Virus record (IMG/VR): IMGVR_UViG_3300024272_001997
Length of the DNA stretch: 64,000 bases
Strand: one strand, 5' to 3'
Source of the DNA: a virus
Taxonomy: Duplodnaviria; Heunggongvirae; Uroviricota; Caudoviricetes
Positions 3,939 through 56,922 of this stretch are shown one piece after another. Each line of letters starts with the position of its first letter. Position 1 is the first letter of the stretch. The position numbers and the translations under genes are program-made. A model generated the notes under the pieces. The model was not told the origin of the DNA. It did not search any database and was given only the letters and a program-made list of their open reading frames with translations.

Positions 3939-4676
3939 TTATAACATAAAACGACTATTTTCTAATAAATCATCTATTTTAAGTGTAGATAAGTGAGTAT
4001 AGGGTATTCTAATTAAATTAATCCCATTATCCTTACACCATTTAGTCTTAAAATTATCTTTTTCAATGGTTTTAAGATAATTTTCTTCTGTATTCCATTC
4101 ATATCCTGTAAAATAGAAGTGTTGATAACCATCAAATTCAATTACTATATTATAGGTCGGTAAATAAAAATCAAATCGTGCTTTGGCTTGTGTATCGGGA
4201 AATATACAAGTATCAAAGGTTTTTTCTTTTTCAAATTCAATATTATAATATTCTAGCAATTCTTGGATTTGATATTCACCTTTAGAGGTACCAATACATC
4301 CACAGGAAATGGTTAAACCTCGCTTAATATTTTCTCCATCTTTAATTAAAGAACTATTCCCACAATCACAATCACAATACCAAAAAGAATGTCTATTTTT
4401 TCCTCCTGTAGGATTTGGAGCCTTGCCTGTGACTACCAATTTACCAAATCGTTGCCCCGTTAAATCTATTACTCGCTTTTGGGCAGATTCTTTTTGCAGA
4501 CAACCACAACTTAAAGTATGGTTGCGACGAAGATTGTCTCCCGATACGATGGTAGATTTTCCGCATTCACATTTACATATCCACTGAACAGAACCTTGTG
4601 GAGTGCGCTCAGAATGTTCTTTTATAACGGTTAATTTTCCAAAAACCTTTCCAGTTAAATCAATTTTTCTTCCCAT
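3939..4676 (-). CDS. free-standing homing-endonuclease-like protein: Zn-ribbon repeats plus Vsr/DUF559-like PD-(D/E)xK domain (paralog 1)
   Basis: repeated GKLTV...WxCKCECG...SCGC motifs; C-terminal RFDF...IEFDGYQH; starts MGRK. Confidence 0.6.
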   Translation of the reverse strand: MGRKIDLTGKVFGKLTVIKEHSERTPQGSVQWICKCECGKSTIVSGDNLRRNHTLSCGCLQKESAQKRVIDLTGQRFGKLVVTGKAPNPTGGKNRHSFWYCDCDCGNSSLIKDGENIKRGLTISCGCIGTSKGEYQIQELLEYYNIEFEKEKTFDTCIFPDTQAKARFDFYLPTYNIVIEFDGYQHFYFTGYEWNTEENYLKTIEKDNFKTKWCKDNGINLIRIPYTHLSTLKIDDLLENSRFML

Positions 4677-4777
4677 AACATTTACCTCATTTCGTCATAG
4701 TATTTTTTCTCTACTATATATAAGTTTGACGAAATAGAAATTATAATGTTTCGTCCAAAGAATTGCGGAACTCCGGT

Positions 4778-5524
4778 TCAGCGGTCGGCTGACCTGGCTG
4801 CCGCAATCTTCTTACCACCGCGCTTTGCCTTACGCTCAATGGCGCCATCAATAGCCATGCGGTGAATGGAAGTGATTTTGGAAGAAATGCCGAACTTGTT
4901 GAGGAAGGAGTTCAGATGCAGAGGCTCATAGCCGCAAGCATCGGAACAAACATTGGTATGGTTGGCACGGAAAGCGCCAGCATGGTCATGACCGTGGAAG
5001 TTCCACAGCCAGGGAATATCAACGGGTTCGTGGGTCAGAATAATCTTCTCACCGATAATCAGAGCGCCCTCATAGACCTCGTCAAAGAGGCAGTTATCGG
5101 CATGAGCCACCCATCTCTGGAAAGGAGCATGGAACTCCCACTGCTCAGTAACCCAGATCTTCCAACCGGGATACTTCTTAGTCATATCGACAACAACCTC
5201 GTCCTGAGTCCACTCGTCCTGATCGTAGATTTCTTCGACGATCTTACGCTCATAGTTAGTGCGGCCCACATCATGATTGCCCATGACTAGAACCTTATAA
5301 CCACGGAGCTGGCGCACGCATTCAATATCGCCTACATCACCCAGGAGAATCAAAGTATCCTTTCTACCAACCTTGGAATTGATCTTGGCGATATGTTCGG
5401 CGTCAGAAGGACGCTTCTTGATGCTCTTGGCGAGATCCTTATCACCGAAGTGAGGATCGGAATACATCCAGACGGTGTTCTTACACCAATGCTGGAACTG
5501 AGGATAAATTCCGGGAATAGCCAT
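4778..5524 (-). CDS. calcineurin-like metallophosphoesterase
   Basis: DPHFG, LLGDVGD and GNHD motifs. Confidence 0.7.
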   Translation of the reverse strand: MAIPGIYPQFQHWCKNTVWMYSDPHFGDKDLAKSIKKRPSDAEHIAKINSKVGRKDTLILLGDVGDIECVRQLRGYKVLVMGNHDVGRTNYERKIVEEIYDQDEWTQDEVVVDMTKKYPGWKIWVTEQWEFHAPFQRWVAHADNCLFDEVYEGALIIGEKIILTHEPVDIPWLWNFHGHDHAGAFRANHTNVCSDACGYEPLHLNSFLNKFGISSKITSIHRMAIDGAIERKAKRGGKKIAAARSADR

Positions 5525-5542
5525 AGTATCAAACTCCTTTTC

Positions 5543-5791
5543 TTAGTAGTCTAAACAATCAATTGCGAAATGGGCATAACCCAAAAGGAAGGGAATTACC
5601 AGTAGATACAGGAAAATGCAATCCGGAGCATTCAGCCAAACGCATAATGCCTGCGGCAGAAGGAAAATTAAAAAGGCAATTAGTACCGCCATGATGATGA
5701 AAAACGATTTTGCCATTGTATGAAAGTAAGGATGATCGTATTTCAGTTTTCTGAACATTCTACTTACTTCATAAGGATTTATTTTTTTCAT
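5543..5791 (-). CDS. small membrane protein
   Basis: hydrophobic helices. Confidence 0.4.
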   Translation of the reverse strand: MKKINPYEVSRMFRKLKYDHPYFHTMAKSFFIIMAVLIAFLIFLLPQALCVWLNAPDCIFLYLLVIPFLLGYAHFAIDCLDY

Positions 5792-5820
5792 TTCTTTTCC
5801 CTCCCTTATCTTACATAAAT

Positions 5821-5849
5821 ATTATATCATATTTTTTTATAAAAATCAA
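5821..5849 (-). promoter_or_regulatory. conserved sigma70-like promoter (family member)
   Basis: TTGATT-N17-TATAAT on the minus strand. Confidence 0.7.
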
Positions 5850-5882
5850 TAAAGACCCTATGGATGCCACAGGGTCTTTATC

Positions 5883-54847: not shown

Positions 54848-54877
54848 AAAGTATCCTCCTTCTTTTCTTTATATTAT

Positions 54878-54906
54878 ATTATACCATTTTTTTTATTTAT
54901 TGTCAA
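54878..54906 (-). promoter_or_regulatory. consensus sigma70 promoter
   Basis: TTGACA-N17-TATAAT. Confidence 0.65.
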
Positions 54907-55696
54907 TTGCGGACTCTTTGATGCGCTCACCGTGGACTTTACGCAACTGATCGGCAAACCGTAGTGCGCTTTCGCACAAATGGCAAGTGCCGGTCTCCAT
55001 GCAGCGCTGGCCGCAATTCACACGACGAGGACCAAGATCTTCAACAATGGCACGATTATCCACATTGAAGTTCAATTCGCTCAACAACAAATTCAAATTG
55101 CCAGGCCAAATACCTTTCTGATAAACTTCCAAAAGAACTTCTTCAGTCTTGAGCTTATCATCCTTATTGTAGAACTCCATCACTTCAATGAAATCCTCAT
55201 AATGCTTTACATCTTCTGGACGAATCCAAGGACCGCAGAAGTTCGGAGCATCGGTCATATGGGTCAGATAACTGGGAACAGCCAAGTTAGGAGTGAAACG
55301 AATCGGAGTCTTAGTGATTTTCTTCACCTGCGCCAACTCAAAGCACAAAGGTGCGCCAAGCACAATGTAACAAGGGTTCATCGCAATGATCCAACGCAAC
55401 TCATAATAAGTTGTGATTGGGAAAGGCCAGAACCATTTGACGCCAGCTTCATCCATTTCCTTTGCCATATGTAAGTTGCTGATAGCTACACAGAATTGTG
55501 GGAACTTCTCCTGATACATCTCCCAGGTCTTTTTCTCGATCGGGGCAATTTGACTGTCAACTTCTAAAATAATTCTTTTATCTGGAATTTGTTCAACAAA
55601 ATCCATAATGCGGTCTCTGTCACGATAGGCGACCCGCACTTCATCAGCCTGCTTTAGAATAGAATAAGGCTGACGACCTGATACACAGTATTTCAC
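54893..55696 (-). CDS. hypothetical protein
   Basis: 267 aa; GTG start; extended -10 promoter at 55722-55752. Confidence 0.4.
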   Translation of the reverse strand: MKYCVSGRQPYSILKQADEVRVAYRDRDRIMDFVEQIPDKRIILEVDSQIAPIEKKTWEMYQEKFPQFCVAISNLHMAKEMDEAGVKWFWPFPITTYYELRWIIAMNPCYIVLGAPLCFELAQVKKITKTPIRFTPNLAVPSYLTHMTDAPNFCGPWIRPEDVKHYEDFIEVMEFYNKDDKLKTEEVLLEVYQKGIWPGNLNLLLSELNFNVDNRAIVEDLGPRRVNCGQRCMETGTCHLCESALRFADQLRKVHGERIKESAIDNK

Positions 55697-55849
55697 TTAT
55701 ATCATCTCCTTTATAATAATTATATCAATTTTTTTCTTCTTTTTCAACTTTTGGAGGAAAAAATTTCTAAGTCGACTTTTCGTTTGGGGCTGTCGGTTCA
55801 TGCGCCCAGGGCCGGCCGGAGCAGGCTAATGAAAAAATGGTGGAGGATT

Positions 55850-56140
55850 TTACTCCTCCACCTTCATGTGATAATCCATAGAGCCCCATCCGCCGTTCGC
55901 CCATCCAGAAGTTAGAGGCTTACAGCAGTATCTGTAAAAAGCTCCCATTGCAGTTCCTCGGCCATGAGAATACTTCATAACCTTTTCATTGTTTACATAT
56001 ACGCTACCCCATTCCTTAGGATTCTCTTGGATAACCCTGTCACAGAACTCGGTTAGCATCATCGGAGACGTAACAGAGATATTGTAAGTGGTAGTTGCAT
56101 CACCATTATCTCTGACACGGACGAAATTTACACCTTTCAT
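55850..56140 (-). CDS. hypothetical protein
   Basis: 96-aa ORF. Confidence 0.35.
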   Translation of the reverse strand: MKGVNFVRVRDNGDATTTYNISVTSPMMLTEFCDRVIQENPKEWGSVYVNNEKVMKYSHGRGTAMGAFYRYCCKPLTSGWANGGWGSMDYHMKVEE

Positions 56141-56169
56141 ATTTCCTCCTTTATATGCGGCCGCCCCGG

Positions 56170-56922
56170 TCAGCCGATTGCTGAACCGGGTTCGCGCAAT
56201 AAATATTTTGATGTTTTAGGTTGAAGCATTTCCAAAGTTATATTATCTAATTCAGTATAAGGAATGCGAATAATTGGAATGCTATGTTGATGACAATATT
56301 GATTTTTTATTTGATCATGTTCTCTCGTTTTTATAAACTTTTCTTTGTTATCATATACTCCATTACCTTGGATAAAATGTTGTCTACCATCATATTCAAT
56401 AATATAAGAATTATTTACATAAAAATCAAATCTAGCAGGGTTTTTAGTATCCTCGAATACTAAATCACTAAAACGCTTTTCTTGAATAAAAGGAATGTTA
56501 TTCTGCTCTAATATTTCTTTTATTTTTCGACTACCTTTTGATTCAACTAAGCACCCACATGATTCTTGATGATGAAGATTGTCAGTCTGAATAATGGCAT
56601 TTTCATTACCGCATAAATTACAGCGACAACGCCATTTATGTCTTTCTTGTCCTTTACTTCCCATGATAGACTCTAGTACAGTAAAGTTTCCAATGGTTTG
56701 TCCAACTAAATTTTTTGTAGAAGCTTCACTAGTTCTTATTTTTTGGTAACATCCACAACTTTTAGTTTTTCCATTCCGTAAAGACGCTCCTTTTACTATA
56801 GTCATTTTTCCGCACTTACATTTACATAGCCACTGGGCTCGTCCAGAAGCATCATTCTAGGCTCGGTCTATAACTTCTAAAAATTCATATATATTTCCAC
56901 GTTCGTCAATTATTTTTGACAT
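56170..56922 (-). CDS. homing-endonuclease-like Zn-ribbon/DUF559 protein (paralog 5) with 1 in-frame TAG
   Basis: ATG at 56920-22; MSKIIDERGNIYEFLEVIDRA(TAG)NDASGRAQWLCKCKCG... joins the ORF-track piece 56170..56805 in frame. Confidence 0.55.

Follow-up and report, generated by a model that had tools for sequence, protein, structure and literature searches.

Five dispersed Vsr-type nuclease genes, probably free-standing homing endonuclease genes, in an uncultured TAG-recoded large phage

The five genes and their family

Five related genes for Vsr-type nucleases, g1 to g5, are dispersed along a 64,000-nt stretch of DNA from a large uncultured phage; this whole stretch is referred to as the window. 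All five ORFs are on the minus strand and encode proteins of 240–250 aa. The first, g1 (3939..4676; 245 aa), has no TAG codon and a full set of catalytic residues, whereas g2 (6985..7713; 242 aa) starts with TTG and contains TAG at 7669–7671 and 7093–7095. In g3 (27421..28173; 250 aa), a TAG at 28069–28071 lies within W-I-C-x-C-E-C-G, and the equivalent of Glu135 is Ala. The fourth, g4 (51699..52421; 240 aa), is free of TAG, and g5 (56170..56922; 250 aa) has a TAG at 56857–56859 and Ser in place of Glu135. Pairwise tblastn among the copies gives 34–43% identity, with E-values of 1e-28 to 1e-56, and a tblastn search within the window found no sixth copy. All five genes announced by a reading of the sequence alone thus exist, but g2 had been ended too early, at 7093. 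The supposed stop there is the second in-frame TAG, so the gene continues to a TAA at 6985, and a conserved C-terminal block (..RD..K..Y..IKLIRIPY..) runs past 7093 up to that point. The motifs described in the same reading, GKLTV..W-x-C-x-C-x-CG..SCGC twice per protein and RFDF..(I/V)E(F/Y)DG-x-QH, were found in the paralogs.

The genes are AT-rich islands, strong outliers at 29–33% GC against 38–48% in their 1-kb flanks. No frameshift or TAA/TGA interruption was found in any of the five copies. Purifying selection acts on g4, the one copy of the five measured, with dN/dS = 0.16 against an ortholog 75% identical (relatives L001–L005). A megablast search of GenBank phages with 39 kb of the window gave no match.

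The genes belong to an already catalogued phage family, with at least 4,936 metagenomic homologs (a lower bound) carrying two, three or four cysteine-rich modules. Literature and database searches found no characterised member with this architecture. The PHROG profiles matched, phrog_9084 (‘homing endonuclease’) and phrog_7140 (‘intron encoded nuclease’) among them, span both modules and the nuclease domain. For phrog_374 and phrog_559, labelled ‘HNH endonuclease’, the similarity is limited to segments with the Cys modules or the Vsr-like part. In GenBank, one relative is labelled ‘very short patch repeat endonuclease’ and others carry an HNH label.

The nuclease domain

The active site on which the sequence-only reading had staked its nuclease assignment is present: D164, E179, G182, H185, D203 and K206 are invariant in 45 of 45 aligned family members, all five copies included, and D181 and E135 are conserved in at least 90%. 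Read literally, the motif is D..E-x-D, its Lys being on the next helix, as in Vsr-type variants, rather than D..E-x-K. E135 has no counterpart in g3, g5 and 4 of 40 relatives; given the loss of this near-invariant Glu, g3 and g5 could be attenuated.

The predicted nuclease domain has a Vsr-like alpha/beta fold, and its best structural match is Vsr itself. A weak hhalign alignment (E = 0.036), made with a shallow Vsr profile whose homolog search yielded only sequences at least 80% identical, sets E135 against E25 of Escherichia coli Vsr, D164 against D51, D181-G182 against H64-G65 and D203 against D97. The equivalence of H185 with H69, from inspection of the motif, requires a one-residue shift in the loop. 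In this weak register, the residues equivalent to E25, D51, the H64 position, H69 and D97 appear to be kept in the paralogs, apart from E135 in g3 and g5. Alignment of the family with a single Vsr sequence was not significant, and phmmer and profile searches of PDB chains, including 3R3P, returned nothing at E ≤ 10. Since significant sequence matches to solved structures are lacking, the link to Vsr and I-Bth0305I rests on the predicted model and the weak profile alignment.

The assignment to a Vsr/DUF559-like domain stands in part, for its fold and catalytic residues; neither Pfam Vsr (PF03852) nor DUF559 (PF04480) was matched even at E ≤ 1. The nearest Pfam model is DUF2726 (PF10881), matched at positions ~53–116, for which the window copies score 13.9–23.4 bits, below the gathering cut-off of 24.7 bits. 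Homologs with a precomputed PF10881 match are numerous, and a relative from an Enterococcus phage reaches 25.5 bits. The copies gave no match in NCBIfam and none to HNH (beta-beta-alpha-Me) models in Pfam. The ‘HNH endonuclease’ labels of the PHROGs stem only from the shared Cys modules, the HNH domain itself being absent here.

The cysteine-rich modules

The N-terminus of each paralog consists of two C-x-C-x-C..C-x-C modules, their Cys residues intact in all five copies. In g4, module 1 occupies approximately aa 10–62, module 2 approximately aa 76–128 and the nuclease domain approximately aa 130–240. These repeats had been called zinc ribbons, a name that finds no support, as the zinc-ribbon fold with its two beta-hairpin knuckles was not matched; they show instead a weak resemblance to small SH3/Tudor-like barrels. 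The modules are presumably Zn-stabilised. Pfam has no model for them, and no NUMOD or HTH match in Pfam was found in the paralogs. The same module stands ahead of an HNH-type domain both in a gene of a Staphylococcus phage and in phrog_374/559, which fits a common nuclease-associated DNA-binding module.

TAG as a sense codon

The sequence-only reading had noted a TAG within the first Cys module of three genes, and g2, g3 and g5 indeed have one; it did not see that these codons are translated. The in-frame TAGs are codons 15 and 207 of g2, the latter an extra one in the nuclease domain, codon 35 of g3, in the C-x-C-x-C knuckle, and codon 22 of g5. The called genes of the window end in TAA or TGA in 90 of 90 cases and none requires TAG as a terminator. 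Within family genes of related phages, in-frame stops are TAG in 98 of 101 cases, TAA in three and TGA in none, and the residue most often aligned to TAG positions is Gln. TAG is thus a sense codon in this phage clade and not damage, most likely decoded as Gln, and the idea that the TAG-bearing copies are pseudogenes was rejected on these three grounds.

A tRNA gene with anticodon CTA, which reads TAG, lies at 36256..36330 on the minus strand and is needed for translating g2, g3 and g5. Compared with the other tRNAs of the window it is closest to those for Met (73%) and Trp (71%), with no clear likeness to tRNA-Gln genes. TAG was not significantly enriched in the five genes relative to other window genes, a control set into which spurious ORFs over the tRNA array had entered.

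Insertion sites among related phages

Comparison with related phages revealed presence/absence polymorphism at all five sites, so that the selfish, seg/mob-like behaviour first proposed from the dispersal of the genes is supported. Sites are empty in close relatives, filled by divergent family members or, at the g1 site, filled by another class of enzyme: the close relative L041 carries a GIY-YIG/NUMOD endonuclease there. L041, at 85–89% nucleotide identity, also lacks g2, as do L043, L045 and L046. No insertion is present at the g3 site in the closest relatives (L042, L044, L045 and L046), and divergent family members (34–64% identical) occupy it in approximately 11 of 80 relatives. The g4 site is empty in approximately 33 of 40 relatives, and that of g5 in L124 and most others, orthologs of g5 being present in L129 and L142. 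No self-splicing intron (group I or II) was found in the window; the five genes are free-standing, lying within neither an intron nor an intein.

Junctions were resolved to the base for g2, g3 and g5. These three share a leader, conserved together with its RBS, and g3 and g5 also share a 3′ end (..REP..* ..CGGCCGCA). A copy of a 29-nt sigma70-like promoter repeat, which occurs 17 times in the window against none expected by chance, lies at 7796..7824 on the minus strand, 83 nt upstream of the g2 start.

The g3 cassette is inserted at the end of a gene for a 503-aa protein. Its 5′ part (28174..28313, minus strand) holds a recoded version of the last ~9 codons of that gene (..KLDSPRYEVIG*), together with a terminator of its own and the HEG leader TATTATAGAAGGAGTTGA; homology at the nucleotide level to L042 and L044, whose site is empty, ends at ~28313. 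Directly after the g3 stop and cassette end, at 27327..27407 on the minus strand, is a remnant of the ancestral 3′ end (..KLDSERYAVIK*) with its terminator, CGGCCGCAG, ~93% identical to the empty-site allele of L042. The end of the 503-aa gene reads ..GACTCTCCTCGCTATGAGG.. in the recoded version and ..GATAGCGAGCGCTACGC.. in the ancestral one; the L042 allele has ..ATGATGGAGAAGTTGGATAGCGAGCGCTACGC.. there. The duplication scores 50 against a shuffle mean of 23.5 (maximum 38), and g3 is alone among the five sites in having such a duplicated target end. The relative L061 likewise has the recoded end plus remnant. As read from these alignments, the cassette brings a recoded replacement for the 3′ end of its target gene and leaves the ancestral end behind as a remnant.

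Homing and its alternatives

These observations support the five genes being free-standing homing endonuclease genes (HEGs) of one large phage family, and we consider it likely that they work as two-module nucleases of the Vsr/EDxHD type. The two tandem Cys-rich modules (C-x-C-x-C..C-x-C) would bind a long DNA target, and the C-terminal domain (D164, E179-x-D181, H185, D203, K206) would cut the allele that lacks the HEG in a related phage infecting the same cell. Repair by recombination would then copy the HEG cassette, together with the leader and RBS that it carries, into an intergenic site or gene end. At the TAGs of g2, g3 and g5, the phage's own tRNA with the CUA anticodon would insert an amino acid, most likely Gln; these three proteins could therefore be produced only once that tRNA is available.

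HEGs often degenerate once fixed, and some copies, especially g3 and g5 and possibly g2, might be decaying relics that are no longer active endonucleases. The Ala and Ser at the highly conserved Glu135, the TTG start of g2 and the in-frame TAG in three copies could all be taken in this way. Decay is nonetheless improbable, as TAG is a sense codon in the clade, the remaining catalytic and Cys residues are intact in five of five copies, frameshifts and TAA/TGA interruptions are absent, and Glu135 is also missing from several otherwise intact relatives. Scarcely more credible, and if anything a little less so, is a service role, in which the genes have been domesticated as nucleases or DNA-binding regulators and might break down DNA of the host or of competitors, shut out co-infecting phage or control neighbouring genes. 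Domesticated HEGs and HEG-mediated exclusion are on record (PMC10448857), the genes are co-oriented with their neighbours and tightly packed against them, g2 sits between a promoter copy and a phosphoesterase gene, and g4 is under purifying selection. Against such service stand the sporadic distribution copy by copy, even among genomes 85–89% identical, the occupation of one site by unrelated HEG classes, the foreign-looking composition and the duplicated target end of the g3 cassette, all of them typical of mobile elements and not of a function conserved in the phage.

That the genes encode Vsr-type T:G mismatch-repair endonucleases or DUF559-type housekeeping proteins is very improbable. Vsr is the best structural match and one GenBank relative bears that name, but the Pfam models of both families go unmatched, the five copies are divergent and carry extra putative DNA-binding modules, scans of the neighbours found no dcm-like partner adjoining any copy, and insertion polymorphism argues against a housekeeping role.

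A bolder combination goes beyond homing as such, and we put it forward as doubtful on balance, though far from negligible. The five-Cys module (G-K-L-T-V..W-x-C-x-C-x-C-G..S-C-G-C) would be an undescribed Zn-stabilised small-barrel DNA-binding unit, in two to four tandem copies, swapped between Vsr-like and HNH phage endonucleases as a new ‘NUMOD’-type element with possibly modular target recognition; in addition, HEG cassettes would protect their carrier through the recoded 3′ end of the target gene, and TAG codons that need the phage suppressor tRNA would gate expression to late infection.

As a case of mobile homing endonuclease genes the window is well documented and fairly ordinary, and it does not overturn current understanding. 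Its value is as a clean natural example of HEG turnover at several sites in an uncultured, TAG-recoded large phage, with empty, filled and differently filled alleles on view. The g3 cassette illustrates how insertion inside a gene end is tolerated, by way of a recoded replacement end. Under the standard code, three of the five genes would look broken to annotation pipelines. This very large family numbers thousands of metagenomic members and no characterised one, and since Pfam lacks a model for its Cys module, biochemical work could supply the HEG toolbox with a further module for DNA recognition.

Comparison with known systems

Among catalogued families, DUF2726 and PHROGs 9084, 7140, 559 and 374 match the nuclease domain and modules, although the window copies fall below the DUF2726 cut-off. 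The nearest known enzymes would be the EDxHD/Vsr-like homing endonucleases, represented by I-Bth0305I (PDB 3R3P) and including free-standing phage ‘Hef’-type genes (Dassa et al. 2009, PMC2677866; Taylor et al. 2011, PMC3239194). The paralogs share their predicted Vsr-like fold but have no detectable sequence similarity to 3R3P, and in place of NUMOD/HTH N-terminal motifs the present family has two to four Cys-rich modules. The active-site loop also differs, being D-G-x-x-H in the paralogs, as in DUF559, and H-G-x-x-x-H in E. coli Vsr; in I-Bth0305I these places are taken by Asn208 and His213.

In their genomic behaviour, the paralogs resemble the free-standing HEGs of T4: both are intergenic, co-oriented with neighbours, sporadic among relatives and present as several paralogs per genome, and both have rival HEG classes at one site, as with the L041 enzyme at the g1 site. 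The seg genes of T4 encode GIY-YIG enzymes and the mob genes HNH enzymes, whereas the catalytic domain here is Vsr-like and the DNA-binding modules differ too. A parallel for the TAG codons is found in Agate phages, in which a homing endonuclease carries a reassigned stop codon, proposed to delay its synthesis until the code switch (Borges et al., bioRxiv 10.1101/2021.08.26.457843). There the codon is TGA, read as Trp, and the enzyme is encoded in a group I intron; here it is TAG, in free-standing Vsr-like genes.

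Five free-standing nuclease paralogs

The five ORFs singled out in the sequence-only reading stand as real genes, and their strand is minus throughout: g1 (3939..4676), g2 (6985..7713), g3 (27421..28173), g4 (51699..52421) and g5 (56170..56922). With TAG read through, they encode proteins of 240-250 aa with mutual identities of 34-43% (tblastn, E 1e-28 to 1e-56); a pairwise tblastn search found no sixth paralog within the window. As first described, each protein has two N-terminal copies of a Cys-rich module, G-K-L-T-V..W-x-C-x-C-x-C-G..S-C-G-C, and a C-terminal core containing R-F-D-F and (I/V)-E-(F/Y)-D-G-x-Q-H. 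The motifs S-x-G-E, D-x-x-K and I-R-I-P-Y are also present in the C-terminal part of all five. The end originally placed at 7093 for g2 is wrong: the TAG at 7093-7095, taken for its stop, is an internal codon, the second TAG within the gene, and the conserved C-terminal block runs past it to a TAA at 6985, for a corrected length of 242 aa that matches the paralogs. Three genes do carry a TAG in the Cys region, at codon 15 of g2, codon 35 of g3 (within the C-x-C-x-C knuckle) and codon 22 of g5, and the internal stops of g1-g5 are TAG in every case. No group I or group II intron was detected within the window, so the genes are free-standing, as had been proposed.

The family comprises at least 4,936 metagenomic proteins (E<=1e-3), none of them named, with homolog lengths of ~240, 300 and 370 aa corresponding to two, three and four modules. 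In an alignment of 88 sequences, five Cys per module are invariant, as are S132, G134, E179, Q184, H185, D203 and K206 of the nuclease domain, and E135, D164, D181 and G182 are at least 90% conserved. All five window copies retain D164, E179, D181, G182, Q184, H185, D203 and K206; position 135 is Ala in g3 and Ser in g5, and 4 of 40 relatives are likewise altered.

The expected assignment to DUF559 or Vsr did not hold at the level of Pfam, where neither was matched and the only match, DUF2726, is sub-threshold (13.9-23.4 bits; cut-off, 24.7). A Pfam scan of the window copies gave no HNH match, an NCBIfam scan gave no match and no PDB chain was matched at the sequence level. Among PHROGs, the nuclease half matches phrog_9084 (‘homing endonuclease’) and phrog_7140 (‘intron encoded nuclease’), and the modules match internal segments of phrog_374 and phrog_559, each labelled ‘HNH endonuclease’. 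Profile-profile alignment with Vsr, whose profile is shallow, is weak (E 0.036) and local (83 columns), in the register that the motifs predict: E135 with E25, D164 with D51, D181-G182 with H64-G65 and D203 with D97.

In a Staphylococcus phage gene, located between recJ-like and ATPase genes, the module precedes an HNH-looking domain, and in an Enterococcus phage relative the nuclease domain of this family is fused to CxxC-type ribbons. The module thus looks exchangeable, and we infer that it may act as a nuclease-associated DNA-binding unit.

TAG as a sense codon

A tRNA with anticodon CTA is encoded at 36256-36330 (minus strand; ARAGORN). Reading TAG as sense joins several broken ORFs, including those of a 1,393-aa fibre protein, a tail-fibre paralog and a reverse transcriptase with 11 TAGs. 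Under this code all 90 called genes terminate in TAA (62) or TGA (28); of the standard-code ORFs with >=90 aa, just four end in TAG, and each continues in frame beyond it. Related viral contigs supplied 34 non-identical family genes; in-frame stops inside the aligned region occur in 26 of them, namely 98 TAG, 3 TAA and no TGA. TAG is translated, and the three TAG-bearing copies (g2, g3 and g5) are therefore not pseudogenes, a reading that was considered and rejected.

The column of g2 codon 207 holds Gln in 23 of 41 alignments of relatives, that of g3 codon 35 a stop in 17 relatives and Gln in 8, and the TAG positions of the peptidase and tail-fibre genes likewise lie opposite Gln. The recoding is that already known as TAG-to-Gln in gut and rumen phages (bioRxiv 10.1101/2021.08.26.457843; PMC9523058), with Gln itself inferred from these alignments, since comparison of the suppressor tRNA with the window's other tRNAs does not reveal its amino acid. 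Within the window, TAG is confined to low-GC genes (the homing-endonuclease genes or HEGs, reverse transcriptase, fibre genes and glycosyltransferase); its enrichment in the HEGs is not significant.

Occupied and empty sites among relatives

No close relative was found among deposited phages, and the contigs syntenic with the window come from IMG/VR and metagenomes (roughly 100-200 kb). The g4 site lies between genes for 473 and 104 aa, which directly adjoin each other in about 33 of 40 relatives. It holds a 75%-identical ortholog in L001-L005 and a divergent family member in L018; dN/dS between g4 and the L001 ortholog, which has two TAGs of its own, is 0.16 (237 codons). L001 and L006 belong to one 402-kb contig (IMGVR_UViG_3300032167_000002) with two diverged copies of one syntenic block, the ortholog being in one and not the other; two related phages were probably joined in this contig during assembly, as a chimera or a concatenate.

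The genes flanking g5 are about 185-220 bp apart in most relatives. In L124, the closest at this site, the upstream gene is followed by a terminator and a 96-aa ORF, with no g5; orthologs occupy the same spot in L129 (61%) and L142 (54%). The 96-aa ORF adjoins g5 in the window (55850-56140, minus strand), matches no family and is missing from most relatives. Its presence in g5-less L124, at 64% identity, makes it a separate variable gene outside the g5 cassette.

The g3 site lies 3' of a conserved 503-aa DUF2828/DUF7788 gene. L042 (88% aa identity), L044, L045 and L046 have no gene inserted there. About 11 of 80 relatives carry a 34-64%-identical family member at the site, which marks it as an insertion hot spot. 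In place of g2, L041 (85-89% nt identity) carries a small ORF that is unrelated, and g2 is also missing from L043, L045 and L046. The g1 site is flanked by phosphoesterase and Thg1 genes in both the window and L041, where it holds a GIY-YIG, NUMOD1 and I-HmuI-NUMOD endonuclease (3331..4149). Occupation of one site by different HEG classes is a classic pattern of T-even phages. Small Cys-rich ORFs also lie at the L041 g1 site (2699..3025 and 2937..3182), and the phosphoesterase there has a longer C-terminus than that of the window. Family genes occur at additional positions in various relatives.

Anatomy of the cassette

The GC content of g1-g5 is 29-33% and that of their flanks 38-48%. A leader, TATTATAGAAGGAGTTGA, is identical in g2 and g3 and differs at two positions in g5; its other near-matches in the window are found only beside the TAG-rich reverse transcriptase. 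The final codons of g3 and g5 (..REP..) are also shared, as are 17 nt past the stop (TGA-YCGG-NN-CGGCCGCA).

Nucleotide homology to the empty g3 alleles ends within the 503-aa gene, about 26 nt short of its stop codon. From there the window has a recoded gene end (..KLDSPRYEVIG*, with a Ser AGC-to-TCT change) and a terminator different from the ancestral one, followed by the leader, g3 and a remnant. The remnant, 82 nt directly after ..CGGCCGCAG, matches the empty allele at about 93% identity and contains ..KLDSERYAVIK* and the ancestral terminator. The duplication scores 50 (shuffle mean 23.5, maximum 38), and nothing comparable was found at the g1, g2, g4 and g5 sites. At the g3 site of L061, a different family member has the same design, and the Glu-to-Pro change recurs in the functional copy of the gene end, so the cassette seems to carry the substitute end with it. 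On the simplest reading, the element would have entered the last codons of its target gene, bringing a substitute end and splitting or altering its own recognition site.

Other elements in the window

Flanking g1 and g2 are a gene for a Thg1-family tRNA-His guanylyltransferase (Pfam 9e-30) and two metallophosphoesterase-like genes, the latter assigned by inspection (3143-3925, 4778-5524 and 6127-6981, minus strand). These neighbours are consistent with heavy investment by the phage in a tRNA pool of its own. The tRNA array (32658-51007, all minus strand) consists of 39 genes by ARAGORN, serves nearly every amino acid and contains the CTA-anticodon suppressor; Rfam adds two tRNAs (49271-49340 and 49356-49424). 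Within the array lies a strong ROOL RNA (323 bits; 40387-41012); an OLE-RNA-like match (34722-34811) is partial, limited to model positions 436-595, and scores 52.9 bits (threshold 50). A DUF3800-XI RNA motif lies at 47892-47927, and all three RNAs are on the minus strand.

The 1,393-aa fibre-like protein, Ser/Thr-rich and repetitive (13658-17839, minus strand), is a fusion of three ORFs and has 3 TAG codons. A diversity-generating retroelement (19162-23754, minus strand) comprises the reverse transcriptase (20994..22139, minus strand; Pfam RVT_1), a template repeat (19326-19451) and a variable repeat (19537-19662) in the 3' end of a tail-fibre gene (19520..20713); all 24 mismatches between the repeats fall at template adenines. 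A second template-like copy (22361-22486) adjoins a paralogous fibre gene (22528..23754), and a sub-threshold Rfam RT-17 match lies at 19162-19250. A near-identical 29-nt sigma70-like promoter, TTGATTTTTATAAAAAAATATGWTATAAT, occurs 17 times in the window (0 expected by chance), without exception on the minus strand (e.g. 1438-1466, 5821-5849, 7796-7824, 10962-10990, 31052-31080, 48362-48390 and 62706-62734), and is kept in related contigs.

Proposed mode of action and comparison with known systems

The tandem modules would recognize an extended DNA site near the 3' end of a conserved phage gene or in an intergenic region, and the Vsr-type domain would cut it, presumably by Mg-dependent chemistry such as that of Vsr and I-Bth0305I (PMC3239194). 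In a mixed infection, the genome with the HEG would serve as the source for repairing the break in the genome without it, and the cassette would be copied across. Translation of g2, g3 and g5 would require the phage CUA tRNA. For a recoded intron endonuclease, Borges et al. proposed that enzyme production is delayed until the code switch (bioRxiv 10.1101/2021.08.26.457843), and by analogy the same delay may apply to these three genes.

As free-standing HEGs, g1-g5 are functionally like the seg and mob genes of T4, and the structural home of their nuclease is the Vsr/DUF559/DUF2726 cluster. The EDxHD family is closest in role, but g1-g5 lack its NUMOD/HTH motifs, have no detectable sequence similarity to it and, unlike that family as defined, show the DUF559 type of loop spacing. 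Among deposited phages, 686 records contain relatives at <36% identity, inconsistently labelled HNH endonuclease, vsr endonuclease, putative homing endonuclease or hypothetical. The five genes thus belong to a kind already catalogued, though uncharacterized, to which they make modest additions: an untyped Cys module, a recoded replacement of the target end and HEGs that use a recoded genetic code.
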